Below, one piece after another: positions 2,921-59,743 of a stretch of 64,000 nt of DNA. How positions within the stretch are numbered: position 1 is the stretch's first letter; each line of letters starts with the position of its first letter. The DNA is taken from assembly GCF_006345805.1 (NCBI RefSeq), contig NC_042998.1, positions 192,014,001-192,078,000 of the forward strand, read 5' to 3'. Source of the stretch: Octopus sinensis (Eukaryota). The notes under the pieces were generated by a model. The model did not search any database. It had not been told where the DNA came from and was given only the letters and a program-made list of their open reading frames with translations. Both the position numbers and the translations under genes were made by a program.

Positions 2921-5044
2921 TATAATAATAATAATTATAACACTTCGTTTTTAATCACCCTCGGAAGGATGTAAACAAAATCCACCTAAGCAGGATTTGA
3001 ACTCAGGAAGTGAAATGTCCTAAATAAATTCTAATTATCATTATACAGACGCTTTAATGATTCTGCTTCTTACCAGTAATGAGTGTTACTTGTTAAGGTA
3101 TTTAATATATGCCATCATATGCTGTCACACTAAAACATCTCTGTCCAATGGTTTCTATTTAGGTACGTTGTGTAGAAGCATATTTAATCTTACACTATCA
3201 AATTAACAATTATATTTTCTGACATGAGCCAGTATTGACATACACTGCAACATAGTCATTGCACTTAAACCATTATTGACGCATGCTAAACAGCTAAAAA
3301 CTTTCAACCGAAATATTTGCCTCCATTTGTATCTCCTTTATTTATTTGTTTTTTTGTAAGCAATTTTTTCCACCAACTTTAAAAGTTGTTTTGATTCTAA
3401 TTGCAGCTGAATGCTTTGTAATTATTTGAAATATAGTTTTCATTGGATAGTATTGTTGTATTAATTACAGCAGCATATAATGAAGTTTCATTAATTGCTA
3501 AAAAATTGGAATTATTGATTTCAATCAACTACTCATACGAAAGATAAACAACAGCAGTAGAGACAACCACTACTACCACTATAATACTTCTACCGTTACT
3601 ACATGAACTCCTAAAAGAGCTATTGATAAAAATAATGATTTCTCACATTGGCACAAGGTTGTACAATTGCAGAAGGAGGAGAGTAAAAGATTTAATTAAC
3701 TGGAATACATGCCTGATAATTACTTCATCGACCCTTGAGGCAACAACGGTAAAATTTATCTCCAGTGATTTTTTACTCCAGAATATATGACAACACTACA
3801 TAAATTAAGACTTTTATTCCAATGCTAGTTCTACACTATCAGCTAGTCAGCAAGATTTTAAATATTGGTTTGCAGACATTCCATATTTGAAAGTTACAGA
3901 AATTTAGATATTCTGACACCCGTGTCGTTGCTATCAAGCTCCAGGTCATCCTTGGACTTGCTGACTTGTAGTCAATGCATCGCAGCGATGCATATCTCAT
4001 CTACGCTTTATTGCTTTCCCCCCATTATCAGTGTATCTAGGACCATCTTATTCCATGCGTTCTATCTTCTTTTTAAAATGATAGGTTTAATTTGAGGGCG
4101 ATTTACCTAACGTTCTCCAGGTGGTTCGGTGAGGTACTTCTTTTTTTCCAATGGCAATGAAACATGCAAAGACATGTTGAATTGAATGTTGAAACTCCAT
4201 CAGAATGACGGTTTCTACAGATCTCAAATCTTCAGTGTGTCTTACACTAATTAGGATTTCATGAGTTACTACAACTCAAGAAAACTGTAGTAGAGGTAAA
4301 TAACCGATCCAAATTCACTAGGTTTAAAATCGCTGCTGCTTTTAGCTCCGTGCAATGCTTTGATCTAGCGAACATATTGTTAAAGTAGTCCCGGGTGTGA
4401 TTTTGCCTTGGTGTTCCTACATACATATCAAACTACATCTGGAAGTACAGGGCCAGAAGATATTTCAACTCAGTTTGCTGATTCTCTACCTAGTCAAGTA
4501 TGATCTACAATGGAAAACTGCTGCTGCATATTGGACAGTACTGCAAACACTTTGCAAGTATATACGAGATCACAACCAACAAAACAATACTCAGCTACTC
4601 AGATGTGTTGTCTCCTTAAACTGCATATTCCGGTGTTACTGTAGCAGTATAAATAAATACATGCATATCTACATATATGTACATTCGAACGACGAAAAAA
4701 CAGAGAAACGAGACATGCAACATAAAGAATATTCTATATGTTGCTTGTCTCGTTTCTTTTGGTGTATGAGGATGGCCTCAGAGATTCTAAGGTCGACCCT
4801 GTTCCGCTGTGTTGCTTTGATGTGCACTGTGAATTCCCGGGTCTGTCATTTCCGTAGATATTTTTTGATGGAAGTATCTGCCTGCATGTATGTGGGAGAG
4901 CCATTATGTCAATATTATTAACACACGCACTGGTTCAATTTCACACCTCTATTATTAGTGAGTTAGTTAAATGTCACACGATCTAATCGATTGTTTGTTT
5001 AATTTGGTTAAACAGTGAGTCCTTTGTTTTGTTTTTGTTTGCTC

Positions 5045-5485
5045 GTATTTACATCCTTTAGTTATATACATTATTTGGTTCGACAGTTTTCTTAGTGATT
5101 TTTCTATTATTTCGCTTCCATCTGTTCAGTCTTTTTGTTCTTCAGCGAGTGCACCCTACAGGTGATAGTTTTCCTCTCCGTTTGCTCCATGATTCTTTTA
5201 GGCGGCGACAACTTCACGTCGCCACCCACCTTCTGCGTCAAGTTTCGAAATTCCTTTAGTCTACCCAGGTCTACATCCATTCCCTTCTCAGAAAAACTAC
5301 TTGTTGTTTCCAATATTCCGTCCATTCTTCTCACCGCCTTCACCGGCTCCTCCTCTGCTGAAGACAATTCAGATCCGCTAAAGTCTGAATACATTTTGTC
5401 TAAACCGCTGCCAAGCAGCACAAAATTCCTCTCCGACTCTAAAAAAAAAAACAAGCAACTGAATCAACACATGCTCAGTAATCGG
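5045..5485 (-). pseudogene. divergent, 3'-truncated ORF1 of the Tx1/L1-like family seen at 52097-54019
   Basis: LKEFRNLTQKVGGDVKLSPPKRIMEQTERKTITCR aligns by eye with LKEYEKFVKREGDSVKLVPPVETIEEKNNMTITYR. After a 1-nt frameshift near 5110 it continues IIEKSLRKLSNQIMYITKGCKY versus EIEKCLGDIMKKATFVDRGKKY. ATG at 5394. Confidence 0.75.
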
Positions 5486-5535: not shown

Positions 5536-5650
5536 TGTCAGAAGTGAGATTCGAACCCACGCCCACATTCGTCGACTAGAATACTTGACGTTCTGGTTAA
5601 GATAACATGTACTTTGAGTCTGGCGCCTTAGACTGCTCGGCCAACCTGAC
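5536..5650 (-). tRNA. tRNA-Leu(CAA) with 31-nt intron, probably a pseudogene
   Basis: GTCAGGTTGGCCGAGCAGTCTAAGGCGCCAGACTCAAA-[intron 5582-5612]-TTCTAGTCGACGAATGTGGGCGTGGGTTCGAATCTCACTTCTGACA; long variable arm; T7 terminator at 5524-5530. Mismatches in acceptor (T:T), anticodon stem (C:A) and variable arm (G:G). Confidence 0.88.
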
Positions 5651-8084
5651 AACTTGCAACCTTTTCAATGACCTTCGTCTTAGTCCATTAGGGAGGCCGC
5701 GTTTGTCTTCCGGAGACCTTGTTGCATGTGTATGTGTGCGTGTGCTTGAGTATGATAACAATAAACACCAAAACATTAATGTGAAGGTAAGCTAGAGATA
5801 CAAAGGACAAAAAGAGACGGCAGTGGGTGTGAAATTTTCCTTTTCTTTATTTCTGGGACGCCTAACTTGTTTTCTTTTTCAGGTGCTGAGTTTATTACTT
5901 CGTAATTGAGGGAAACGAAACGTTTATAAGGAAATGTTATTTGAAATTGTCTTTATTAAATTCTGTTTCAGTAAAATATTTTTTTATAAGGTCATATATT
6001 TTGTTACTCTCCCCAGAGCTGAATCCATACCGATTTAGAATGTACATTATATCTAAGATTTTTAGTATTCACAAATTTACACCCGAACTCTGTAAGTCAT
6101 TATAAAAATTTTAATCAAAGATATTTGTTCATACACGCGACTAAAATTGTTGCAAGAGGTAATATGAATCGTGTTTTTATACTGACTTCGAAAGGATGAC
6201 CAGCTTAATCAACTTCAGAGGGATTTGAACTTGTTGAGACTTAATATTGCCTTTTGGGTGATTCATAGTATATCATTCTTTTTTGAAATTACTTACTATA
6301 GCCTTATTGGAATATGCTTCAGGCAATTATCAGCTGAGCAAAAGCAATGTGTGCTGAAAATAGCCATCACTTCAAATTGTTGAGCAAATACTTAAGTGTC
6401 ACCAGGTGAGAAATCACAACTGCTGCTGTAATAGAATCGATATCTGGAATATTTATATCTTATATCGACACCATGGCGATAACACACATCATGGCTGGAA
6501 GCTGGAAATTATGATTGACAGTTTAATTCATTCTACTTAAAGAAAACAAAGCAAACTACTTATAATTCATCATAGTCACTGGACAACAAATGACGCTTCA
6601 AAGGATTTCAGAAAACTATTGTTTTATGTTGGCATCAAAGAACCGACAGATTACATTGTGTTCTAAATAAATAAGTCTACTGTATGTATACACACACACA
6701 CACCATACACCACACAACACACACACAGACATATTTAAATATATAAGTAGTAATTTATGTCGTTTTAAATTATATACTTTTATTTGTATACTAGTCAACA
6801 GAAAATAAACAGACTGTGTGTATTTTAATGATTTTATATAATTTACAGTGGTCAGCTTTTAAAGTTGAAGATTTAAGAAAATAATTGTATGTTTTTAGTC
6901 TGTCCATTCGATGGCCGGCATCGACTTCTTCATTAATTATCAGATAGAACATTTGTATTTGAAATACCAATTGTAGGTTAATTTTTATGGTCGATAGGTA
7001 TTAATTAAGGTATTTCAAAATGTATCATTTCAGGTTATTAAGTCAATCAAAAGAACAAGACTTTGAATATTTAGACTATCATCGAAGTAATAATTGATTT
7101 CACTTCTATTTCTTCCGTCCATCATGATATCAATTGAATAGAAAAGTAGTGGCTTTCGTTTCTCTTTGCATTTGTAGTCTGTCTTTTCATCAATAATTCG
7201 ATATAAATATCTTAACTATTACAAAGAGGCTGATGCAATGACTCGGTTATCAAGATGTGAACTTGACAAAATCTTTTAGTGCATCATCACTTTTTGTAAT
7301 TATAAATTTGATTATCACCGGGTGTTGCAAGTTCATTCAATTTTTCAGCCTTTGTACATTCTAAATATACTTGACCTAATTTTCTATTTAAAAAAGCATT
7401 GATTTTTGAAACAAGTGTCTAACTGAATCAGCAATGACATGAAATGCAAACTCTAACTATAACAATATATTACTCTCGTTAGATACACATTTTTTCTTTC
7501 TTCCTATTCTTCTATTTTCGATTTCATTTGTCTTTCCTTTCTTCATCTTCGATTAGTTTTCGTTTGCTGCTCTTTCATATGATGGCAAGTATTTCACCAC
7601 TGAAACTCAGTCATAACATAAAAAAACAAGGCCGTAGAATGATAAACAAAGTTCATATTACACATTTTTTGCATAGAAAACCGGCGAACATCCCACTAAA
7701 ACTGATGGACAAACCTCTGTACGCAGTGTTATTGGGTCACTTTCTCAAAAATCTATGTTATTAGTATGACGGTTTTCTATCATTAAATAATTGCTGCATC
7801 CGATATTTACTGATTGATGTATAGAATTTTTGTACCTAAATGCTATTTCAACAGCAAATTTGTGTGTGGGTGTGTGTGTACACTGGGAATGAATAGAGAC
7901 AATATATCCAAGTGGGTGCCCTACAAGCCCGTTTGTATAATCCAAATTACGATTAACCGCATTATTGGATTATAAACAGATTGTTGAGAGTATAGCCAAG
8001 AAAATCCAAATAAAGAAAGGAACAATACATCTACACACTCTTGTTTTTCAGTATTACAGTCAATTATACAGCATATTTATAAGG

Positions 8085-8468
8085 GGAGGCGCAATGGCCC
8101 AGTGGTTAGGGCAGCGGACTCGCGGTCATAGGATCGCGGTTTCGATTCCCAGACCGGGCGTTGTGAGTGTTTATTGAGCGAAAACACCTAAAAGCTCCAC
8201 GAGGCTCCGGCAGGGGATGGTGGTGATCCCTGCTGTACTCTTTCACCACAACTTTCTCTCACTCTTACTTCCTGTTTCTGTTGTACCTGTACTTCAAAGG
8301 ACCGGCCTTGTCACTCACTGTGTCACGCTGCATATCCCCGAGAACTACGTTAAAGGTACACGTGTCTGTGGAGTGCTCAGCCACTTACACGTTAATTTCA
8401 CGAGCAGGCTGTTCCGTTGATTCGGATCAACCGGAACCCTCGTCGTCGTAACCGACGGAGTGCTTCCA
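8085..8468 (+). mobile_element. SINE group A (A1), full length
   Basis: Family sequence; 12-bp TSD atatttataagg at 8073-8084 / 8469-8480. Confidence 0.95.
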
Positions 8469-8700: not shown

Positions 8701-8830
8701 AAAATAATAAGACAGCCATATGATTTTTTTTAACCCTCTAAAAATGTGAAGGAGTTATAATACATCAATGACAACAGCTAGTTTCACCATACAACTAAAA
8801 AGAAACGCCAATTACCTAAAATTTGAGTGA

Positions 8831-9212
8831 TGGAAGCACTCCGTCGGTTACGACGACGAGGGTTCCGGTTGATCCGAATCAACGGAACAGCCTGCTCGTG
8901 AAATTAACGTGTAAGTGGCTGAGCACTCCACAGACACGTGTACCCTTAACGTAATGCTCGGGGATATTCAGCGTGACACAGAGAGTGACAAGGCCGGCCC
9001 TTTGAAATACAGGTACAACAGAAACAGGAAGTAAGAGTGAGAGAAAGTTGTGGTGAAAGAGTACAGCAGGGAGCACCACCATCTCTGCCGGAGCCTCGTG
9101 GAGCTTTAGGTGTTTTCGCTCAATAAACACTCACAACGTCCGGTCTGGGAATCGAAACCGCGATCCTACGACCGCGAGTCCGCTGCCCTAACCACTGGGC
9201 CATTGCGCCTCC
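8831..9212 (-). mobile_element. SINE group A (A1), full length
   Basis: Family sequence; TSD aaatttgagtga at 8819-8830 / 9213-9224. Confidence 0.95.
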
Positions 9213-9899
9213 AAATTTGAGTGATACACACACACAACATCATGGTCGGAAAAGTAACGGTCATAAGAAAAATAAGGGAGAAGGGAAATGTCCACGATCA
9301 AAATAAATTATTAGTTTGATACTTTGAGAAATGCCGCAAGTTAATTAAACCTTTTCTAGCATTGTTCTTTCTATGAATACAGGTCAAGATGTAGACAGGA
9401 AGTAAAACGACAAAAATCTGAAGAAAAAAACAGAGTGCAACCAAGGTGATAATGCCCGCGTGATACCTGATGACAAAGTGGTACTCATTGTGTTCAACAG
9501 AGTAGATAATTGGGGGAAAACTATATGTGATAAATAGCATGAAATCTACAATGGAAAAAGTTCCTATTCGGAGTTTAGCGATATTTTTTTCTGATTTAGA
9601 GGAAACCATTTAACCGTAAATGTTTCTTCAATAGAAGGCTTAAATACCATCAAATACTTTCGTTTAGGAATTTCTTGCAGTGAAATTGCTCCACTAGTTG
9701 TATGGAGAATTCCATTTTGCCAATTTTTTCGCATCATTGTATTACATTTTAAAGAAATTATTATGGCATTATTTAGTATGCAGAATGGACCCTGGGAGTG
9801 TAATCCTGAACTATATTGTTGCTATTCATAATGCGTGAAACAACAATCTCACTATCTAATCTCTCTCTTGGAATATACATACATACATACATACATACA

Positions 9900-12111: not shown

Positions 12112-12496
12112 TGGAAGCACTCCGTCGGTTACGACGACGAGGGTTCCGGTTGATCCGAATCAGCGGAACAGCCTGCTCGTGAAATTAACGTGTAAGTGGC
12201 TGAGCACTCCGCAGACGCGTGCACCCTTAACGTAGTTCTCGGGGATATTTAGCGTGACACAGAGAGTGACAAGGCCGGCCCTTTGAAATACAGGTACAAC
12301 AGTAACAGGAAGTAAGAGTGGGAGAAAGTTGTGGTGAAAGAGTACAGCAGGGATCACCACCATCCCCTGCCGGAGCCTCGTGGAGCTTTAGGTGTTTTCG
12401 CTCAATAAACACTCACAACGCCCGGTCTTGGAATCGAAACCGCGATCCTATGACCGCGAGTCCGCTGCCCTAACCACTGGGCCATTGCGCCTCCAC
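12112..12496 (-). mobile_element. SINE group A (A1)
   Basis: Family sequence; TSD tgtaaaggtt(t) on both sides. Confidence 0.95.
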
Positions 12497-12819: not shown

Positions 12820-13178
12820 CAGCGGACTCGCGGTCATAGGATCGCGGTTTCGATTCCCAGACCGGGCGTTGTGAGTGTTTATTGAGCGAAAATACCTAAA
12901 AGCTCTACGAGGCTCCGGCAGGGGATGGTGTTGATCCCTGCTGTACTCTTTCACCACAACTTTCTCTCACTCTTACTTCCTGTTTTTGTTGTACCTGTAT
13001 TTCAAGGGGCCGGCCTTGTCACTCTCTGTGTCACGCTGAATATCCCCGAGAACTACGCTACGTTAAGGGTGCACGTGTCTGTGGAGTGCTCAGCCACTTA
13101 CAACGTTAATTTCACGAGCAGGCTGTTCCGTTGATTCGGATCAACCGGAGCCCTCATCGTCGTAACTGACGGAGTGCT
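12820..13178 (+). mobile_element. SINE group A (A1), 5'-truncated
   Basis: Family sequence lacking the first ~25 nt. Confidence 0.92.
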
Positions 13179-14833: not shown

Positions 14834-14955
14834 TCAAAATGAGATGAAGATATATTAAGATAAATTAAGATAAACGAAATAGAAATAGTGAAACGGGGAG
14901 AAAAAAGACTTCTCTTCCAGAAGAATGTATTTGCATATTTATTTAGATATCTAGT

Positions 14956-15341
14956 GGTGGTGGAAGCAGTCCGTCGGTTACGACGATGAGGGTTCCGGTT
15001 GATCCGAATCAACGGAACAGCCTGCTCGTGAAATTAACGTGTAAGTGGCTGAGCACTCCACAGACACGTGTACCCTTAACGTAGTTCTCGGGGATATTCA
15101 GCGTGACACAGAGAGTGACAAGGCCTTTGAAATACAGGTACAACAGAAACAGGAAGTAAGAGTGAGAGAAAGTTGTGGTGAAAGAGTACAGCAGGGATCA
15201 ACACCATCCCCTGCCGGAGCCTCGTGGAGCTTTTAGGTGTTTTCGCTCAATAAACACTCACAACGCCCGGTCTGGGAATCGGAACCGCGATCCTATGACC
15301 GCGAGTCCGCTGCCCTAACCACTGGGCCATTGCGTCTCCAC
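14956..15341 (-). mobile_element. SINE group A (A1)
   Basis: Family sequence; (CCA)n tail; TSD agatatctagt at 14945-14955 / 15342-15352. Confidence 0.95.
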
Positions 15342-17686
15342 AGATATCTAGTAATACTAACGACAATGAATGACAACTATCCAAAATAATTCTTGTGTTC
15401 ATGTGTGTGTGTGCGTGTGTGTGTGTGGTGGTGGGGGGGGGGGGCGCGCATGCGTGTACATGAGCAATAAGTTATATATTTAAATATTTAACCACGTATG
15501 TTAAATTTGATTGCATGACGTTTCCGAAGTTGTCATCTTGAAAATAGCGTGTTAGCTCTAAAATGCATTTCATCAATTTGTAATACTTGCTGCAGTTTTA
15601 ACACCTATAGAGCCCGAGGGGAAATGTTTAGAAACTAACAGAATACCACAGTCACAGCTGTTTTATTTTGGTACCAGATAATTACACACTAATCAGTTGT
15701 AATTTCTAAGTCGAACCAGGCGTTCTTTAAGCTTCCATTCATACCCAAAGACGTGTTATCACAACTTCTCTGTATCAGATTATGTACCGTGTTTCCAGAA
15801 TCAAAGGAGCATGTTACAATTATTCTCCATTCCACTAATATTTCCTTTTAAGTAACATTTACTATTTATTTCATTTTCGACATGGTTTTATCATTATCAA
15901 AAGCCTAAGATGGTAAAAAAACCTCATGAGTCATTTCGTCCGAATATCATAAAAGAATATATAGCTATAAAAAAACACGCCTCTTCGTTTGCATATTAAG
16001 TAATTGAAACGGTTTATGATGGTTAGTTGAACATCAAAATACACCATTATAAAACTGAAGGTTTATTTATATATTATAAACTGAATCACTCTATCGGAGT
16101 GTTGTAATGACCAAATATTCTATTACTCTATTGTATAGAAACCCATTACACTGCCTTATATAACCGAATAAAACTTTAAAGTAATTATATTTTCTCAGTC
16201 ACTGTGCTGGCTGTGTAGGGAAATTAAATCTAAAACAACTTTCTCCAAATGTTTTAGAGAATAATTTTACATCAATATGATCAACATAAAATAATTTAAA
16301 TTTCTAGACGGAATTGCTGCCAAAACTACCGTTTCTGCAGAATGCAGCAGAGAGAGAAACGACAACAGACGTATCTTTGAAAAATGTTCTAATTATACAT
16401 AATGCTCTATTATAATATTATTTCCGGTTATTAAGCCAAACATTATGGCGAAACACTTTTAATTCGGCTTGTTTAGAATCACTTAAATTCTTCACTAACA
16501 AAATGCTTAAAATCATTTATTTTATTGTTTTTTCGTGGGTTTTAAACAAACAGCACACATAAAAATATATACCTTACTATGGACAATAATTAGTTTTAGA
16601 AGTAGAGGTAATTACTCAGATCGTATTTCTGACTAACAATGAAAAATCCAGAGGCAACAAATTTTTTAAATCAGTTTCCTTCTTGATTCAAATATTTCAC
16701 AACGCCTGCTACTAAATCTTATTCCGGGAATCATAACGAAAAATCTTGCCACGATCGTCTTTGCTTTTCATCTCGGAGTCACTAAGGTAAGGTACTCGTC
16801 ACATACAAGGCTGCAGCGAACTGACTATATCATCTCAAAACAGTGAAGCCATGTACCAAAATAAGAAATCAATATTCTTAAACTTTTGCAAATCACTAAT
16901 TTAATATTTAGCAATTTTATGCTAATTGGTGTTCTTGTTTGTAGACTCAAAACGAAATTTGTCCATTCACTGCTTGAAAATTGTTTTTTGATAGAGTGCA
17001 TGTAGCACTACATTTTAAATGTTATAGTGTGATATGAGATACACTTGGCTGCTATTTCTAACCCGCTGTGCTAATACATAAATACCTTCATATCGTGTCC
17101 GATAACTGAATCGATAAGAATTTGGATCTCTTACAGAGGTCGAGAATCGCATCACGTCTCTGCTTATAAATTTAAAGAATTAAATCACTAGCATTAATTA
17201 CTCAGAAACGCTATCCGGTTTTTAGGAACCTTTAAGTATTAAAGTATTAAATTAAGTGAGAATTTAGAAATACTTAGGTAGCGAGGAAACGTAATAATGA
17301 TTCAGTTACTATCATTTAGAGCGTCTGGTTAATTATAACGGGAAAATAATACTACAATTTGTGTATGGCCACGATTCTTAACTGCCTTTTTATGCTTAGC
17401 TGTAAATGGGTACCAACAGTGAGCAGCGGTAAGATTGTACTATTTTCTAATATTTCGTTATTTTATAGAGCTGAATTTAATAACTCCTGTACATTGATGA
17501 GAATGAAACTTCTCTGCTTTGTGCTGCTACTACAGAAATTCTGCTTCTCTGATCTGCTTAGACTAGTACCACTCTCTCGAGCGATTGCGACTTACTTGTC
17601 TCTGCTTCTTTTGTCACCTACAATGTGCTCAGGCTTTCATGCGGGGAAACTGGGGTTTGATACAGTTCTATGCCCAAGACATCCTT

Positions 17687-21744: not shown

Positions 21745-22757
21745 TTCAAATTTTGGCTAACGGTCAGCAGGTTCAAGGAAGGAGAGAACTTCATTCCATT
21801 GACCCAGGGCTCAGCTGGTACTTATTATTTTACCAACCCTGAAAGGATGAAGGCAAAGTTACGTAAGGTGCAATTTGAACTCAGAACATAAGGAATGGCT
21901 GAACTACCTATTTCTATTTCTTTTGTACCCACAAGGGGCTAAACACAGAGTGGACAAACAAGGACAGACAAACGGGTTAAGTCGATTACATCAACCCCAG
22001 TGCGTAACTGGTACTTACTTTATCGACCCCGAAAGGATGACAGCCAAAGGTGACCTCGGGGGAATTTGAACTCAGAACGTAACGGCAGACGAAATACGGC
22101 TACGCATTTCGCCCGGCGTGCTAACGTTTCTGCCAGCTCGCCGCCTTTCTTGGCAGACGAAATACCTATTTCTTTACTACCCACAAGGGGCTAAATACAG
22201 AGAGGCCAAACAAGGACAGACAAACGGATTAAGTCGATTGTATCGACCCCAGTGCGTAACTGGTACTTACTTTATCGACCCCGAAAGGATGAAAGCCAAA
22301 GGTGACCTCGGGGGAATTTGAACACAGAACGTAACGGCAGACGAAATACGGCTACGCATTTCGCCCGGCTACACACAGGGGGGACAAACAAGGACAGACA
22401 CACGGATTCAGTCGATTTATATCGACCCCAGTGCGTAACTGGTACTTATTTAATCGACCCCGAAAGGATGAAAGGCAAAATCGACCTCGGCGGAATTTGA
22501 ACTCAGAACGTAACGGCAGACGAAATACGGCTACGCATTTCGCCCGGCTACACACAGGGGGGACAAACAAGGACAGACAAACGGATTCAGTCGATTTATA
22601 TCGACCCCAGTGCGTAACTGGTACTTATTTAATCGACCCCGAAAGGATGAAAGGCAAAATCGACCTCGGCGGAATTTGAACTCGGAACGTAACGGCAGAC
22701 GAAATACGGCTACGCATTTCACCCCGTGTGCTAACGTTTTTGCCAGCTCGACGTCCT
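21745..22757 (-). mobile_element. head-to-tail cluster of SINE-B copies, including a 179-bp tandem duplication
   Basis: Old copy at about 21745-21895, then units starting at about 21908, 22167, 22369 and 22548; the last two are almost identical. Confidence 0.9.
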
Positions 22758-24653
22758 AAAGGAGACATATGATATTCATGGTACATACGTCTCTGTTACA
22801 AGCATAATGGAAGGAAAAGAGAGATTTAAAATTCCAATCATCAACAGCTTATCTTTTACACGACTGAGTTATCCACAGAACAAAAATATTAATGATGCTG
22901 CAATGTATTGTTTCCCAATTGAATGATACTACAAGCTTGTTTTCCCCTCTCTCACTTTGAAAAGGCATTGTAAAGCTTTTCACTGCAAGATTTCTATATT
23001 ATCTCAGGAAAATATCTTCGAGGATATAACGACATACCATGCCAATTTTATCACATTTTAATATCAGTGGTATCATTCTGTCATAAAACGTATTTCTTAT
23101 TTGTAAACCGTGGTAGAAGCAAAAAAAATAATAAAAACGCATCGTGCGGTGTCATAAAAATGGCGTATACTGCATAATAGTTATCCGAGATATGTGTTTC
23201 AATATAAATCATTTTGAAAGGAGATTTACGAAGTGTCTAATCTATGGAATTATTTTTTTAAAGTTTATTTTTGCATTTCAATAGATAACTGCGTGTTGCA
23301 TTTTAATTTTGAACAAAGTGTTTAAATAGAATTGCATACTTCAATACGATTGCATACTGAAGACATTGTCGGTAGGAGGATGTGCCACTGCATAGCCATC
23401 GCAACATATTTTAGTTGCTAGGGCACAGACAACTTAAATACTCAAGATAAAGACAAGAACTAATGCTGAAAAATTAAACTAAATAATGCTATACCGTGTG
23501 ACGCTAAAAGCAAGAAAACTATATGAAAGAAAATAATTTTAATGGATTTTGTAATTAGAATGAAAATATTTTTAATTGAACGCAATGTTAGAGCTAAGCT
23601 TCCAGAGTTTCAAATGCGTTTCTTTGTTACAGCCTCTATAAAGCTTCTGCTCTAGAGGAAATAAAAAAAGATTCAACGAAAACCACGTTATTCCCTACTC
23701 TTTTAAAATTTTCTTACGATGCGTTATAAAACGAAAGGAAACGAGTTTCTGTCGATAAATGAAATAAATATATATCATTTGTCGTGTTTCAAGAAATTTC
23801 AGCTGATCACGTGAGAATTTTCCAACGCCACAGGAAATTTTTGTCTTACCCAAAAATTGATTTTACATCTGTTTTGTAACAGTACAACTTGGAAATATAA
23901 CAAAGACATAGCAAACAGAAAAAAAAGATCATCGTATGACATCTTTTATTTTTCAACCATAGTTCGCAAGAAAGCTCCTGTGGCAGAATAATAGTAAGAA
24001 ATGTAATATCATTACATGGTTTTATTGATTTTATCAAGAATTCTTTGAAAGTGTGTTTCTCTATACTGGCATTTAATACGAATAGCTGCTTGGTCATATA
24101 TGCACCGAAACACCCACACGTCTACTAACAATCTCTGTTGCATAGCTGTCCGTATTTACATGCGCCTGTATGTATGTATGTAAGTATATATACGCATATA
24201 TGTGTGCATTTAGATTTCTTAATATTACTTATATTGCCAAACAATTCTGGTTTGGCAAAAGCGTTAGAGCATGGGAAAAAAATTCCTTGCGGTATTTAGT
24301 TACGGTGTTTCGCTTTTCGTCCGTCCGTGCTCCATAAAATAAAGTAGCAGCCGTGAAACAAATCAATATTATAACATTATTCCCAAAACGTTGTGTGTGT
24401 GTGGTGTGTGTGTGGGTGTGTGTGTGCGTGTGTGTGCGAATTTTGCATTTAGGGATTGATCACTATAGAAGTGGAAATCGGGGTTCACAGCGTGCGGTTA
24501 TTAAAAACATCAAATAAGTCAACAAAATACATTTTACCAATCACAGGTGAAAATAGAAAATCTGAAAACCAATTAACATTAATGAAGCCTTGTATAATCA
24601 AACATAATTAATGAACTGAAATATTCTTTATTGAAATTATACTTTCCTATATA

Positions 24654-27889: not shown

Positions 27890-28484
27890 AAGGTTTCAAA
27901 TTTGGCGGCAAGCTCAGCAATTTCGGGTAAGACGATTACATCGACCCCAGTATTGAACTGGTACTTATTCCATCGATCCCGAAAGGATGAAAGGCAAAGT
28001 GGGTCTCGGCAGGATGTGAACGTAGAACATAAAAATAGTCGAAATGCAGCTAATAATTTTTTCCGGGGGCGCTAATAATCCCTATTTCTTTACTAACCAC
28101 AAGGGGCTAAACACAGAGGGAACAAACAAGGACATCAAAACGGATTAAGTCGATTTCATTGACCCCAGTGCATAAATGGTACTTAATTTATCGACCCCGA
28201 AAGGCTGAAAGGCAAAGTCGACCTCGGTGGAATTTGAACTCAGAACGTAACAGCAGCCGAAATACCTATTTCTTTACTACTCAAAGGATCTAAACACAGA
28301 GGTGACAAACGGATTAAGTCGATTACATCGACATCAGTGCGTAACTGGTACTTAATTTATCGACGCCGAAGGGATGAAAGGCAAAGTCGACCTCGGCAGA
28401 ATTTAAACTCAGAACGTAACGGCAGACGAAATACCGCTAAGCATTTCGCCCGGCACGTTAACGTTTCTGCCAGCTCGCTGCCTT
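27890..28484 (-). mobile_element. cluster of three SINE-B copies
   Basis: Old copy at about 27890-28075, then units from about 28082 and 28267. Confidence 0.88.
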
Positions 28485-29130
28485 AAAGTAGCTAAATAAT
28501 GCAATATATTTAGTGTGGCATCCTACTGTTATACTGTCCCATTCTCTATTTCATATACCTAAGAGTAACGGGTAAACATATTTGGAGAAGGATGAAGTTT
28601 CGATTAAACTGATTTCAATAAATGCGTGCTTATTTAATTTTATCGTTCCTCGAAAGTCAGAAGGGAAGTCAAATGTGACTGGATTCCTCTAGAACCAAAA
28701 GAATCATAATAAACCCCCAAGACATTTTCTGTAGAATTCGCATTATTCTTCTGCCTGCCACATTCTTTCAGATGTATTATAGATTTCTAGCCTTGGAAGG
28801 AGCACTCAGATTGGAAAGAGATAACAAGATAGATTTAATCCAATTCATGTTTAATTCTTGAGATGAATATAGCTATTGTAATCATAGTAGAATAGCACGT
28901 TATATATTGAATCCTTCTTTCCTTAGAATATATATTATATTTCATATTTTCCCTTGCAGTGTTTACTTAATTTTGTAGTTGTGTAACATATGCTAACTCT
29001 GTATGTACTGTTAGGCGAACGGCCATACTACGACCATTGTTTTTCTCTTGCAGTTATTGGAAACGCGTCTCGTGGCAAAGTATTCCGTTCAATGAGTTTA
29101 CTGATGTTGCGCTATGACTTTTCCTCTGTA

Positions 29131-50271: not shown

Positions 50272-50745
50272 ATACGTGCTTGTGTGTTTGAGAGTGCGTG
50301 CGTGTGTGTTAGAAAGAAGAAAAAACAGTAAAAAGAAAAGAAAAAAACTCAATTTTGAACACAAAAAACAACCAGAAACGAAAAAAATGTTTTTAAACTT
50401 TAGTAACAGTCTTCTACCAGGATTCTGAAACTGCATTTCCAAATCACCATACAGACACCAGTTGCTGACATCACCCACCTCCAATTCAATGAAATTCTAG
50501 AAATACCAGTTGCTGACGTCACCTAACTGTAGACCAATCAAAATCGAACTTCAGCAAATACAACGAAATGAGCCTTTAAGAGAACCAACCAACCGGAGCG
50601 ACTTATGACCGTATCCACAAGGAAACCAACCAAGCAGAACGACGAGCTTGACCACGGGAAACAAAACGTCATCAGGATTTTAACTAACCAAAAATCAGAT
50701 TCGCTCGCGGAAAAAATTATAAATTCATCTCACCCCAAAACATAT

Positions 50746-51110: not shown

Positions 51111-52096
51111 TACTATTTTCATTTCACACTTTTTTTTTTTTTTCAGTATGACTTGTCGACCACTACTGAAATTAATGAACTTTGTACATTCAAACAAACT
51201 GATAAAGTTTTAACTTTATTGATTGCTATGAACATTCAAATTTACACCTTCTGTTTTGAACATGTTAATTTATCAGCATTGAAACATTTTAGTTTGTCAA
51301 TATTGGAAACGTTTTAATTCGTCACTATTGAAACTTTTAAAGATGTTTTTTTCTAATTTTAAACTTTTACCATTGATAAGCAAAAAATATTGTTGAAACT
51401 AGTTTAGTATATATGTAAATCAATGCATTTTAAACATTTACGAGTTTTTGAAATTTAGGTGCATTTTCAACAACACATTTTCCTATATTTTTTCCTACGT
51501 GGTAACCCCACCCTCTCTTCCATCAAAAACAGAGATTGCCAATTATTCAGTTTGAAAAACTTCTACTGATTGTACACCACCGCTCTAAAGTGATGGACAT
51601 ATTGCTCTTACCCACAAAGATAATTACATGTTACATTATCACACTTTTGGTTCTCTTAAAGGGTCATTTCGTTGTATTCACTGAAGTTCGGTTTTGATTG
51701 GTCTGGAATTAGATGACATTACTAGTCTCCATAAGGTCGACATAAAAGCGACACATCACAACAAATCCTCAATGGAATTCCATTTCCAATGACCAATGTT
51801 CTGTTTTATATGCATTTTATGTGTATCTCTTGAGTCATTACCATTTATATATATTTTCTCGGACACCTTTATATTTTTATGTATACCTTCTCGTGATTAT
51901 TAGTTAGAATCATTATTTGGTGGTTCCGTGACTTACTAGTAACAAGAAAGTTTGATTTACTAGTAGGAAGGAACAAGGGAAATACGAGGTGTTATCATAC
52001 CAATAGACTTTATTCCTCACTCCATTGCATCAGGAATTAATGCAGAAACAGTTTGGAATTTTAAGGAAAATAATTGCAAACACGCTAAGAACATGT

Positions 52097-54019
52097 TGTT
52101 TTATTATTACCCACTAGGGGCTACATAGATGGGACAATACAATCGGGAAAATGAATAATGAATTATGAAGTTTGTACAATGTGGTGCAATGCCCACTCGA
52201 TCCCCGAAATCGAGCGGTTACATTTCGTCATTTATTTTTATTCGTCAACAATATTTTCCAAATAAAACATTTTATACATTTTCAACATACATTTCAAAAG
52301 TTTTACAAAGTTCAACATTTCTTTTTTTTTTTCAGAATTTAAAGTTCTTTTTATCATTTCCAAATTAAAGTTTTCACAATACCTTTTCTTTTATATATAC
52401 TCCATTATGTCTACCAAATCTGAGTAAACTTCCATCGTTCGAGGCCACCTTGTAAGTCGGCATTTCATATGTTTTAACACGTTCTCGCCCGCTGCCTCGA
52501 TGAACGCCTCGGCGTCGTTCTCGTGGACGAGTGCACCTGTTTCTTTCCATTCGGTGCCCATCCTGACCCACGTATATCCGTTTGTTACGCTTATTAAATC
52601 TTCCATCTCCTCACAGTGCTTGTGATGGATCAAAGTTCCATAGTATTTGAATTTTCTATTCGTACCTACGTTTTCTCTAGTTTTTCTCTTAGGACTTACT
52701 TCCTCTTTTTTCTCCTCCCTCGGTTTCTCTCTTTCTCTCTTTTTGCTTTCTCTTCTTTCTTTTTCCTTCTCTTGTCTTTTTGGCTCTTTGTCTGCCGTCT
52801 CTCTACCCTGTGCCTTAAGTTCCTTTCCTGTTGTTTCTTTTCCTTTTTGCATACCATCTTTTCCTTTCTCTTGGTTCTGTTCCTTCTCTTGTTCTTTTCC
52901 TGCTTTTTCTCTTTCCTTTAATGTACTTTCCTTTTCTTTCTCTTGCTTCTGCCTTGGCTCCTTCTCCACTACTTCTGCACCCTGTGAATTTTGCTCCTTT
53001 TCTACTATCTTCTTCCCTTTGTTTTCATTTTCCTTCAGTGCGCTGTTACTTCCCTTCTCTTGTTGTTTCTCCGTTATTTCCTTTTCCTTATTTTCGCTGT
53101 TCTTTCCTTCGTGTTCGTTTTCCTTCTCTCCACTTTGTGTCTCTTTTTGCTCCGCTGTAAATTCATACAGCGGACATTCCTTTTTTATGTGCCCTCTTGA
53201 ACCGCACAGGTAGCAATTCGGTTTTCTGCCTTCCACTATTACACTAATTGTTTTCTCGTTTTCTATTTCTATTTGGAAGGGAAATCTTTCGATGTCTTCC
53301 ATTGTGGCCATCAGCCACAACTCTACTCCGAATCCCTTCCAATTTACAACGTTCGTCTCCTTAATTGACCCTATTTCTACTTCCTCTTTTGCTGCCCCAA
53401 TAATGGCTGTTACCAGCATTTCTGTTTTAATATTTGGGGGCACCTTTGGGACTCTTACCCGTACCCCTCGTCTTCCTTATACGTCGGCCACATGGTGAAA
53501 TTTTCCGCTTTCAGGACAGTGGAAGCCAATGAGGCCGCCACTTCCTTTGTTGCGCATCTCACCTCCACCGTACCATATTTCTTTCCTCTGTCTACAAAAG
53601 TCGCTTTTTTCATGATGTCCCCCAGACATTTCTCTATTTCTTCAATCGTCACTCTCACCAGTTTTCTCGTGTTTCTATCTTGCGTTCTATACGTTATCGT
53701 CATGTTATTTTTCTCTTCTATTGTTTCCACAGGCGGGACCAGCTTCACGCTGTCACCCTCCCTTTTGACGAACTTCTCGTATTCCTTCAATTGTTCTTTT
53801 CTAAAGAACACTTCTTTTATTCTAAGAGACTCGTCACTTTTTGTTGTGGCGACCCCCGCGTAAGTCTCCATGACTTGAGGGTCGACACACCTTCTATAAA
53901 AGGTTCAAACACGTAGCGGCAAACGCCTCGCGCGATTCAATTTTTTGACAATTTTTAACAGTTTTTTTTCCAATTTTCACATACAAAATAACTCACAACA
54001 CACGTGGGTAGATTTCCTC
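52097..54019 (-). mobile_element. complete ORF1-only non-autonomous non-LTR retroelement (HAL1-like)
   Basis: Perfect 16-bp TSD cacgctaagaacatgt at 52081-52096 / 54020-54035; 148-nt 5' UTR, ORF1, 294-nt 3' UTR; no RT or endonuclease. Confidence 0.88.
52391..53871 (-). CDS. ORF1p / Gag-like nucleic-acid-binding protein with CCHC zinc knuckle (about 493 aa after correcting one 1-nt frameshift)
   Basis: The 138-aa and 350-aa ORFs join near 53477 as ..MWPTYK/GRRGVRVRVPKVPPNIK..; knuckle CYLCGSRGHIKKEC; long E/K-rich linker; short C-terminal globular segment. Confidence 0.8.
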
Positions 54020-54075
54020 CACGCTAAGAACATGTGACCCTTAAATGTACTTTTTCTTCGCATTTCCATGCCCAC

Positions 54076-54503
54076 GGGCGTGTGGCGTAGTGGTTAAGAG
54101 CGTGGGCTACTAATCCCAAGATTCCGAGTTCGATTCCAGGCAGTAATCTGAATAATAATAATAATAATAATATAATAATAATAAGAATAATAATAATAAT
54201 AAATGAACGAACTATTGAGTTTGGTTTAATGGCCTACCAATGCATACTATGAGTTTCTTTACCCTAGGAGTCGGGCAGACGCTCGGCAAGAAATGGAAGC
54301 AAATTTGAAAGAAGAAGAAAAAGAAAAACAAATAATAATAATAATAATAACAACAACAACAACATCGAAAAATACCTTAGGAATGAGAATCCAGGTTCGA
54401 AATTTTCCCAAGACATCTGATAAAGGCTGGAGAGTATATCAGCCTAAACGTTGTGTTAACAACAAACAAGATGAGGACGAATAACCGTCAAATGTAAATA
54501 ATG
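54076..54503 (+). mobile_element. tRNA-headed SINE-like element with (TAA)n spacer and hammerhead-bearing tail
   Basis: A box tggcgtagtgg at 54083-54093, B box gagttcgattcc at 54126-54137; (TAA)n interrupted by about 130 bp of other sequence; degenerate hammerhead at 54412-54457. Confidence 0.62.
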
Positions 54504-54879
54504 GAATTAATGGAAATTATAGGGTTCTCTGGAAAATCTAATTATATGGAACGAACCTAAATATGTATGCATTGTTGACACTTAAAAGATGTCAATAGAA
54601 TTTTAGGACAATGTGTTTTTTTACCTTTACAAGCTACAACATCGTAGATTAAGTTTCTGAGACTTTATTCATATTTTATACACTCCGCAACTTCGCTAAC
54701 CGTTAAACACATAGATTGGAAATTCATGAGACAAAATCGTGGACTGATTGGTAATTTTTGGCTTTCATTTCCTTTGAATATGCATCTGTGCTGTTGTCCG
54801 TTTCGGTATGTTAATTTATTCAAAAACTTTCTTCCTTCCATGTAGTAGATTTTCCAGTAACTTAAAGGAGGGTACAATA

Positions 54880-58301: not shown

Positions 58302-59525
58302 TATGTTTCTTTATTAGCCACACAGGGCTGCACACAGATAGAACAAATTACAAGGTAGAGCTTTTCTTTTGAAGGGTTAAAAAAAAAAGGAAGGGGGGAG
58401 TTTCGATCAAAAGGGATCGTAAAAGGAGAGAAAGAGGACAAAAAGGGGGAGAGGAAAAAAAAATTGATCAATAGGGATCGTTATCACAGAAATGTCAATA
58501 TGAAGTGTAAAGGGGAGGACAGGTGAGGTTTACCCGTGGAAAGAAAAGCCTACGGAAAAGACCACGGTAACCTCGGTCAATGAAGTCACATTTTATATTT
58601 CTTTTTTTTTTTTTTTTTGCAAATAAGCAACTCTCTGTTTTCGATTTCTGGGTTCATAGGACTATGCTCAAGGTGGCTTCGTCATTCATACGTGCCATTC
58701 TTGCTACATTCACCCATCTTTTTTTAAAACATTCGCTAGACAAAACTTGCCTCTCTACTCTCACTTTCCTTTTCAAGTGGTACTTGAAGAAGTTGATGAG
58801 AGATTGACCAGAGAGGAAAGTGTTTGTCTCCAATCCTTTCAGACGCGTCCACCAGATACATTCTTTCGCCATAGCCACAAGGATGATGAAATAGCTATTC
58901 CTTCCCGTTTGAAGGAAGGAGGCGTGACAATATTGACGATAGACTCAGCTGATAAACCGACTCGTCCCACACGTGACAGCAGTTGTTCGACATAAGCCCA
59001 CAGGTCGGAAATTGTTGGACACTGAACGAGTGCGTGCAGAACGGTTTCGTCGCTCTGACCGCATCTCGGGCAGGTCGGCCCCGTGTTTCTCGAGCCGTGT
59101 CTGTAGAGCTTATCCCGAACTGGTAGCGCTTCTCGGTAGCACTGCCAGGCCAGGGATCTCTGGAAGTTGTCCATGGGCCCTGGCCCGAAAGTCGTCCCGA
59201 ACAGGCGGGTCAGGTACTCCTCGTCGACGTCCAGGTTCGCCCCGAGCTCGTCGTCGTACCTCCCCTCCACTAAACCCCTATAGAATGCTTTGGTTGTGTT
59301 GAAGTCACTTAAGGTCGACCCAGGACGGCAGAGTTGCTTGAGAGCAACGCGACACTCGCGGTGCCATTCGCCCTTCCTCGGCCTCTTTTTGATCCACGAC
59401 TGCAGTTCGGTCATGGAGACGAGCTGCGGGAATGCGTGCCTCACAAACGGCGACCACACCTGTTCACCGTCGTCTACATAGAGCCAGAGATGTCGCAGTC
59501 TCAGCGCGTGTCTGCGCATGTCTGC

Positions 59526-59604: not shown

Positions 59605-59652
59605 CAAACAGATAGACATATAGATAGACAGATAGATAGATAGATAGATAGA

Positions 59653-59743
59653 TATGTTTCTTTATTAGCCACACAGGGCTGCACACAGATAGAACAAATT
59701 ACAAGGTAGAGCTTTTCTTTTGAAGGTAAAAAAAAAGGGGGGG
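59653..59743 (-). mobile_element. second, heavily truncated copy of the same LINE 3' end
   Basis: tatgtttctttattagccacacagggctg..cttttgaagg is identical to 58302-58375. Confidence 0.9.

Follow-up and report, generated by a model that had tools for sequence, protein, structure and literature searches.

How does a retroelement that encodes neither reverse transcriptase (RT) nor endonuclease come to lie complete between target site duplications? The question is raised by a locus of Octopus sinensis, contained in a stretch of 64,000 nt (the window). A perfect 16-bp direct repeat at positions 52081-52096 and 54020-54035 brackets 1,923 bp which, read on the minus strand, consist of a 145-nt 5' UTR (53875-54019) bounded by the element end and the ATG at 53874, a first open reading frame (ORF1), and a 294-nt 3' UTR (52097-52390) that directly follows the ORF1 stop, with no ORF2. 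The repeat at 54020-54035 flanks the 5' side of the element, and its identical counterpart at 52081-52096 flanks the 3' side, where the boundary between tail and target site duplication (TSD) may be ambiguous by 1-2 nt; family contigs align up to 52096 or 52095. Among 399 random pairs of 200-nt windows placed at the same spacing, none held a non-simple exact match of at least 12 nt; without the simple-repeat filter, exact matches of at least 16 nt occurred in 14 of 300 pairs. Pfam detected no RT or endonuclease in either part of the ORF, and the sense strand of the 3' UTR has no stop-free stretch longer than 50 codons. The original prediction had claimed both this TSD-bracketed arrangement, with a CCHC knuckle in ORF1, and the absence of RT and endonuclease, and in both respects it was right. 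We consider it highly probable that the locus represents, at full length, an octopus family of many copies that carries ORF1 only and is copied by the ORF2p of an autonomous L1/Tx1-type LINE that recognises its tail.

ORF1 begins at 53874 and stays open in its first part to 53455, and its second part extends from 53476 to 52391 in another frame. Restoring the frame yields 494 codons and a stop, compared with about 493 amino acids in the earlier count. Contigs from four runs (X1, X4, X8 and X15) were compared with the element at 82% likeness; X8 bears organism label C and X4 label B, and X15 may be the source of the window itself and is not independent. An additional base at 53476 is present in all four runs and accounts for 99-100% of the depth (4171.5 of 4222.9, 55.7 of 55.7, 29.9 of 29.9 and 32.3 of 32.3), and in protein P0003 the frame continues past the site of the frameshift to the same end point as the window ORF. 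The single 1-nt frameshift previously proposed (53476-53477) is thus present in the window but not in the family: it reflects the loss of one base that is confined to this copy or to its assembly, and ORF1 is open in the family since all four runs carry the base that is absent here. A programmed frameshift was also considered and is ruled out by the same extra base.

Evidence of selection on ORF1 is mixed. When the window copy is compared with the majority form, 5 of 7 differing sites are synonymous if the majority is taken from at least three runs and 6 of 7 if it is taken at 70% of X15 depth, against an expected 20-26% and with p 0.0003-0.015 over both groupings; the synonymy counts use the 40 differences listed out of 201, and the groupings were chosen after the list had been viewed. 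In the main contigs of X8, one of nine changes is synonymous, which gives no sign of purifying selection.

The ORF1 protein appears to combine several domains. Its N-terminal part (53477-53874), likely a first RRM-like domain, is homologous to the N-terminus of the O. bimaculoides protein P0012 (E 2.2e-27 in a set of 180 proteins). The segment that follows (53174-53476) probably comprises a second RRM-like domain and a single CX2CX4HX4C knuckle (53215-53174), recognised by Pfam as the only zf-CCHC of the window ORF1 (E 1.8e-5, above the cutoff), and the knuckle region resembles nucleocapsid proteins and ZCCHC8. The N-terminal half of P0012 resembles CCHC/RRM clusters that include ZCCHC3 RBD1/2 (ESM Atlas feature score 0.90); one structural comparison of P0012 with PF23058 reached the bar, and a DUF4283 cluster, at TM 0.50, remained under it. 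Pfam found RRM_1 in 1 of 36 ORF1 family members (E 0.031), and AlphaFold modelling of P0001 with 10 sequences (pLDDT 34.5) yielded no usable fold of the RRM-like half. These similarities fit an N-terminal half of the type I ORF1p kind, defined by RRM and CCHC.

A Lys/Glu-rich low-complexity linker of about 170 aa (52664-53173), read from the sequence, connects the knuckle to a C-terminal domain of about 90 aa that ends at the stop (52391-52663) and is conserved across subfamilies (P0003, P0015, P0022 and P0068). This domain is predicted by AlphaFold2 to adopt a ferredoxin-like alpha/beta fold (pLDDT 82.5 for the best model and 50.9-70.5 for the other four) and corresponds to no named family. 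Foldseek gave no hit at E<=1e-3, the best VIA score was Z 7.4 with no specific PDB match, and the ESM Atlas gave no usable hit, results from which one can conclude neither novelty nor absence. In P0031 and P0058, the long C-terminal regions do not align to the profile of the domain.

All nine hits to the knuckle region (among 34 candidates) come from gene models of Octopus vulgaris, which are distributed over several contigs of chromosome size. A wider search returned 375 proteins at E<=0.001, and seven of ten relatives that were checked belong to O. vulgaris, O. sinensis, O. bimaculoides or Argonauta. Identity to the window ORF1 is 95-97% for P0007 and P0194 (aligned over 157-244 aa) and 34-61% for other relatives, including the P0003 type, a sister family at 56%. 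In an ORF1 tree with no labelled outgroup, P0001 groups with the P0003 type and then with P0012 and P0019 of O. bimaculoides. A search for proteins of 666-2000 aa related to residues 1-150 of P0003 found none among 404 candidates, which is weak evidence, and a metagenome scan with P0003 patterns recovered no relative among 594 matches. Elsewhere in the window, a degenerate 5' fragment of a related ORF1 occupies 5045-5349 and 5536-5650 on the minus strand (profile E 9e-6). About 190 nt upstream of its start lies a sequence that resembles an intron-containing tRNA-Leu and escapes ARAGORN and Rfam, neither of which makes any tRNA or other RNA call in the window; the fragment is possibly a tRNA-targeted relative.

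Could ORF2 have been lost from a standard two-ORF LINE by a single or rare internal deletion, with most relatives still carrying it? The original prediction had named this outcome as one that would undo it, and the contigs tell otherwise. The dominant X8 contig (record 25; 1,174 nt, depth 62.2, 17 other letters and 6 gaps) covers 53362-52188, stop included, at a depth that matches the rest of ORF1 in X8 (about 56-67), and X4 record 17 likewise bridges ORF1 into the 3' UTR (52475-52312). The same joint is found in relatives that are about 14% diverged. X15 record 10 and X8 record 26, about 86% alike at the ORF1 end and paired with their joints through matching depths (35.2 and 5.29), leave by record length at most 182 nt between ORF1 and a hairpin of the 3' UTR, and these relatives are therefore also devoid of ORF2. 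Furthermore, X15 depth shows no dip at the stop. It is true that contigs collapse copies and drop rare forms, that 24 of 279 loose ends are listed, that no X15 record bridging the stop is among those listed (32 of 929 pieces), and that X1 leaves the bin surrounding the stop (52352-52430) uncovered, a gap that by itself proves nothing. Overall, a rare deletion is largely refuted and we find it barely credible.

The family is instead multi-copy, lacks ORF2 and has an intact ORF1, as had been predicted and as the contigs now bear out. X15 depth is 3,484-4,172 in the 5' half of ORF1 and 29.9 in the flank, a ratio of 117-140 which, given that contig depth is no copy number and can be read as an order of magnitude only, suggests copies of order 100. 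The depth increases further towards the 3' end, the pattern expected from 5' truncation. Beyond 54019, where its alignment ends, X1 record 8 has 54 more letters that disagree with the window flank, so that another locus has the same 5' end; X4 record 21 ends at 54021. The TSD is seen at the window copy, and no second copy of the element lies within the window. Between the window and near copies there are 4 changes over 902 nt in X1 and 9 over 1,256 nt in X4, few enough for the window subfamily to be young. The youth attributed to the family therefore holds for this copy and its subfamily, while the ORF1-only lineage looks older. Note also that low-depth contigs skip 93-791 nt inside the element (joints 52765-53557, 52230-52859, 53648-53915, 53796-53909 and 53647-53741); the sides of these joints are short, and the contigs may be further internally deleted derivatives.

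The 3' end of the element bears on how such copies were made. Its terminal tail, the last 50 nt (52097-52146), aligns with the tails of two other elements of the window, a tRNA-type SINE of about 240 bp with at least 10 copies and a 5'-truncated LINE on the minus strand at 58305-59450, which retains the end of an ORF2 with zf-RVT (E 2.3e-8, stop at 58654) and lies within an (ATCT)n microsatellite. In 2000 shuffles, none of the pairwise scores between the three tails was ever reached. The LINE-type tail of the original prediction is consequently confirmed as common to LINE and SINE and refined to a motif of about 50 nt, distinct from poly(A). The LINE looks like a microsatellite-targeted Tx1-type element, and a short second LINE 3'-end copy occurs in the same (ATCT)n repeat at about 59650-59740.

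A tail common to a SINE and a LINE is an established mark of trans-mobilisation (PMC5786205, PMC4494074), and the 50 nt in common with the SINE and the Tx1/L1-type LINE suggest a borrowed ORF2p. Upstream of the tails the UTRs of element and LINE have only A-rich chance matches, and the similarity to the LINE is that of the last ~50 nt; for this reason the window LINE is a candidate type of partner and not the parent. In O. vulgaris, L1-Tx1 comprises 13 families of recent activity, whose 421 insertions amount to 2.29 Mb (PMC13282606, Table 1); since these insertions average 5.4 kb by our own division, full-length donors exist. The tails fold no better than shuffles (z -0.41 for the element, +0.52 and -0.26 for the others), and a stem-loop in the tail is unsupported by folding energy. 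A hairpin is predicted further upstream in the 3' UTR, at 52178-52232 (-18.1 kcal/mol, z -2.13, matched by 6 of 200 shuffles), and is retained in the diverged relatives, whose contigs re-align with the element from about 52237. X15 and X8 contigs that diverge at 52142 and 52225 represent further families with only the tail or the hairpin in common.

The L1/Tx1 type of the element is indicated indirectly, by the ZCCHC3-RBD and DUF4283 look-alikes of its ORF1 and by the tail it has in common with a zf-RVT LINE. Type I ORF1 is not limited to one clade, and no ORF1 relative was seen beside its RT, both of which would accommodate an RT partner from another APE clade with a type I ORF1 (the I, Nimb, Jockey, L2 or CR1 group). 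The look-alikes argue against such a partner, as does the tail-sharing LINE, with its zf-RVT and its position in (ATCT)n resembling that of target-preferring Tx1 elements (PMC4494074), and we judge it very unlikely. In animals other than mammals, RRM/CCHC variants of ORF1 have been called consistent with Tx1 (PMC5203782).

The tail also bears on a further explanation, in which the copies would be processed pseudogenes or retrocopies of a host gene domesticated from ORF1 that do not propagate themselves. L1TD1 and ZCCHC3 are host genes with this kind of origin, and the resemblance of the N-terminal half to ZCCHC3 RBD clusters, the annotation of relatives as uncharacterised genes and the presence of the family in runs that are guessed to be RNA would all agree with it. 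However, the tail is of LINE/SINE type and not poly(A), copies are of order 100 and fall into several subfamilies with head-to-tail junctions, and the gene models are scattered over many chromosome-sized contigs. Retrocopies of a host gene are consequently very unlikely, and an ORF1-only family mobilised by an L1/Tx1-type partner remains the preferred explanation.

Under this preferred explanation, a LINE derivative would have lost ORF2 and kept its 5' UTR, ORF1 and tail. Transcription would start from the element's own 5' UTR, and the encoded ORF1p, with its two RRM-like domains, knuckle, charged linker and C-terminal domain, may package its own RNA. The ORF2p of the partner would then prime at the tail by target-primed reverse transcription and leave the TSD. 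After the loss of ORF2 the lineage would have split into subfamilies, and head-to-tail copies most likely would arise by serial insertion or by template jumping of the borrowed RT.

Such head-to-tail arrays of the family are suggested by contig joints and gene models. Contigs that run out of the 5' end and back in through the 3' tail occur in X15 (depth 269.8, 9x flank), X1 and X8 (16.6), with flanks of limited length and through a tail that is also common to other families; the X15 and X1 joints pass through the same variant 5' sequence, and an X4 joint re-enters through a tail closer to that of the SINE. P0003-type models bear consecutive accessions (CAI9715245-249 and 251; 9739099-101; 9729052/53; 9719596/97; CAJ1099379/80), which we take to denote neighbouring gene models, of which identical ones could be isoforms. 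Several of them differ by substitutions, and gene models give no distances between units. Such arrays, like the diverged sister subfamilies and the tail in common with other elements, had no place in the original prediction. In the window, the ~240-bp SINE also forms head-to-tail runs (21793-22770 and 27928-28486), some units of which are 5'-truncated, joined at the tail motif; these runs echo the arrays proposed for the ORF1-only family.

A small ORF of 89 aa accompanies these models. It is identical on 9 contigs, occurs in 2-3 tandem copies per model and in clusters of up to 19 members, and is spliced upstream of ORF1 halves, one of them 97% identical to the window ORF1; no copy was found within the window. 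Dozens of O. vulgaris models (P0164-P0174, P0182-P0199) contain it alone, in tandem, or together with ORF1 halves or unrelated exons. Its similarity to the ORF1 C-terminal domain is weak, with a score of 9.7 against a best of 9.6 in 1,000 shuffles. A wider and rather doubtful proposal is that octopus harbours a long-lived consortium of coding retroelements devoid of RT, made up of several ORF1-only subfamilies and a very abundant element for an 89-aa micro-protein that may be the C-terminal domain alone. These would have one tail in common with a major SINE and form mixed, non-telomeric head-to-tail arrays, with ORF1p supplied or competed for in trans.

Other repeats of the window include a tRNA-like head and (AAT)n runs in the right flank (54075-54520), part of which presumably resembles a Penelope-like terminal repeat. 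A repeat family of about 390 bp has six copies within 15 kb, on both strands and with 92-96% identity (503-920, 8079-8468, 8828-9216, 12112-12496, 12820-13178 and 14934-15353). Two 71-bp segments (50518-50588 and 51647-51717), 1.1 kb apart with a SINE between them, form an inverted repeat of 89% identity and are possibly the ends of a non-autonomous DNA transposon.

How does the octopus element compare with known ones? HeT-A, HAL1 and Ag-Sponge are ORF1-retaining non-autonomous LINEs from Jockey, L1 and CR1 (Kojima 2018, PMC5786205), and in the same source ORF1-only LINEs are listed for three clades, with mammals and insects as hosts. HAL1 had several origins among mammals (PMC5753468; see also Smit 1999 and Bao and Jurka 2010, as cited in PMC5753468 and PMC5786205). 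Telomeric lineages with ORF1 only have evolved repeatedly in Drosophila, and new ORF1-only families can spring from them (bioRxiv 10.1101/2025.06.09.658640). Like HAL1, the octopus element is non-autonomous and dispersed, encodes ORF1p only and appears to derive from the L1 group; unlike HAL1, it has a CCHC-knuckle ORF1, a tail common to a SINE and an extra C-terminal domain, and it is molluscan. Mammalian L1 ends in poly(A). These differences in ORF1 type, tail, C-terminal domain and host indicate an origin independent of HAL1. The ORF1 of mammalian L1 is of type II, with Transposase_22 (PMC5203782); Pfam found this domain, the mark of HAL1 proper, in neither the ORF parts of the window nor 36 relatives.

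HeT-A of Drosophilidae, a member of the Jockey clade, is ORF1-only like the octopus element, depends on the ORF2 of another family, as the octopus element probably does, and forms head-to-tail arrays, of the kind suggested for the octopus family (10.1101/2025.06.09.658640). It differs in clade; moreover, the window copy is solo, interstitial and TSD-flanked, and nothing in this analysis links its family to telomeres. Ag-Sponge, from the CR1 clade of Anopheles, is likewise a bipartite non-autonomous LINE that has kept ORF1 (PMC5786205). Unlike the octopus element, it is CR1-derived and resides in an insect. To our knowledge, no array structure has been described for Ag-Sponge. Tx1-clade LINEs and the SINEs they mobilise (SINEU) have common 3' tails, target preference and tandem insertions (PMC4494074), a combination akin to what is seen or suggested around the octopus family, but are either autonomous or non-coding.

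The literature searched, a scope that leaves Repbase, Dfam and the library of PMC13282606 outside, yielded no ORF1-only LINE from molluscs or from the Tx1 group. Available portions of the 2026 O. vulgaris repeat annotation (PMC13282606) mention no ORF1-only element, and excerpts of PMC10294476, PMC8967140, PMC4758252 and PMC4455052 mention no molluscan or Tx1 case. An automated consensus of the family may well exist in repeat databases under a generic L1-Tx1 or unknown label. The ORF1-only design is thus known from mammals and insects, and the literature searched holds no molluscan precedent for the octopus family.

For flies, repeated ORF2 loss has been reported as a peculiarity of telomeric elements (10.1101/2025.06.09.658640). 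A dispersed, recently active molluscan case with multiple subfamilies would show that keeping ORF1 and dropping ORF2 is a general parasitic strategy. A LINE, an ORF1-only element and a SINE on one tail provide a natural three-way comparison for the contribution of ORF1p in cis. RT-based surveys of LINEs cannot detect ORF1-only elements, and many 'uncharacterised' gene models of O. vulgaris are copies of the element or spliced chimeras of neighbouring copies. If the consortium proposal were true, dozens of annotated octopus 'genes' would be such elements, and octopus genomes would hold HeT-A-like arrays that come from the L1/Tx1 side.
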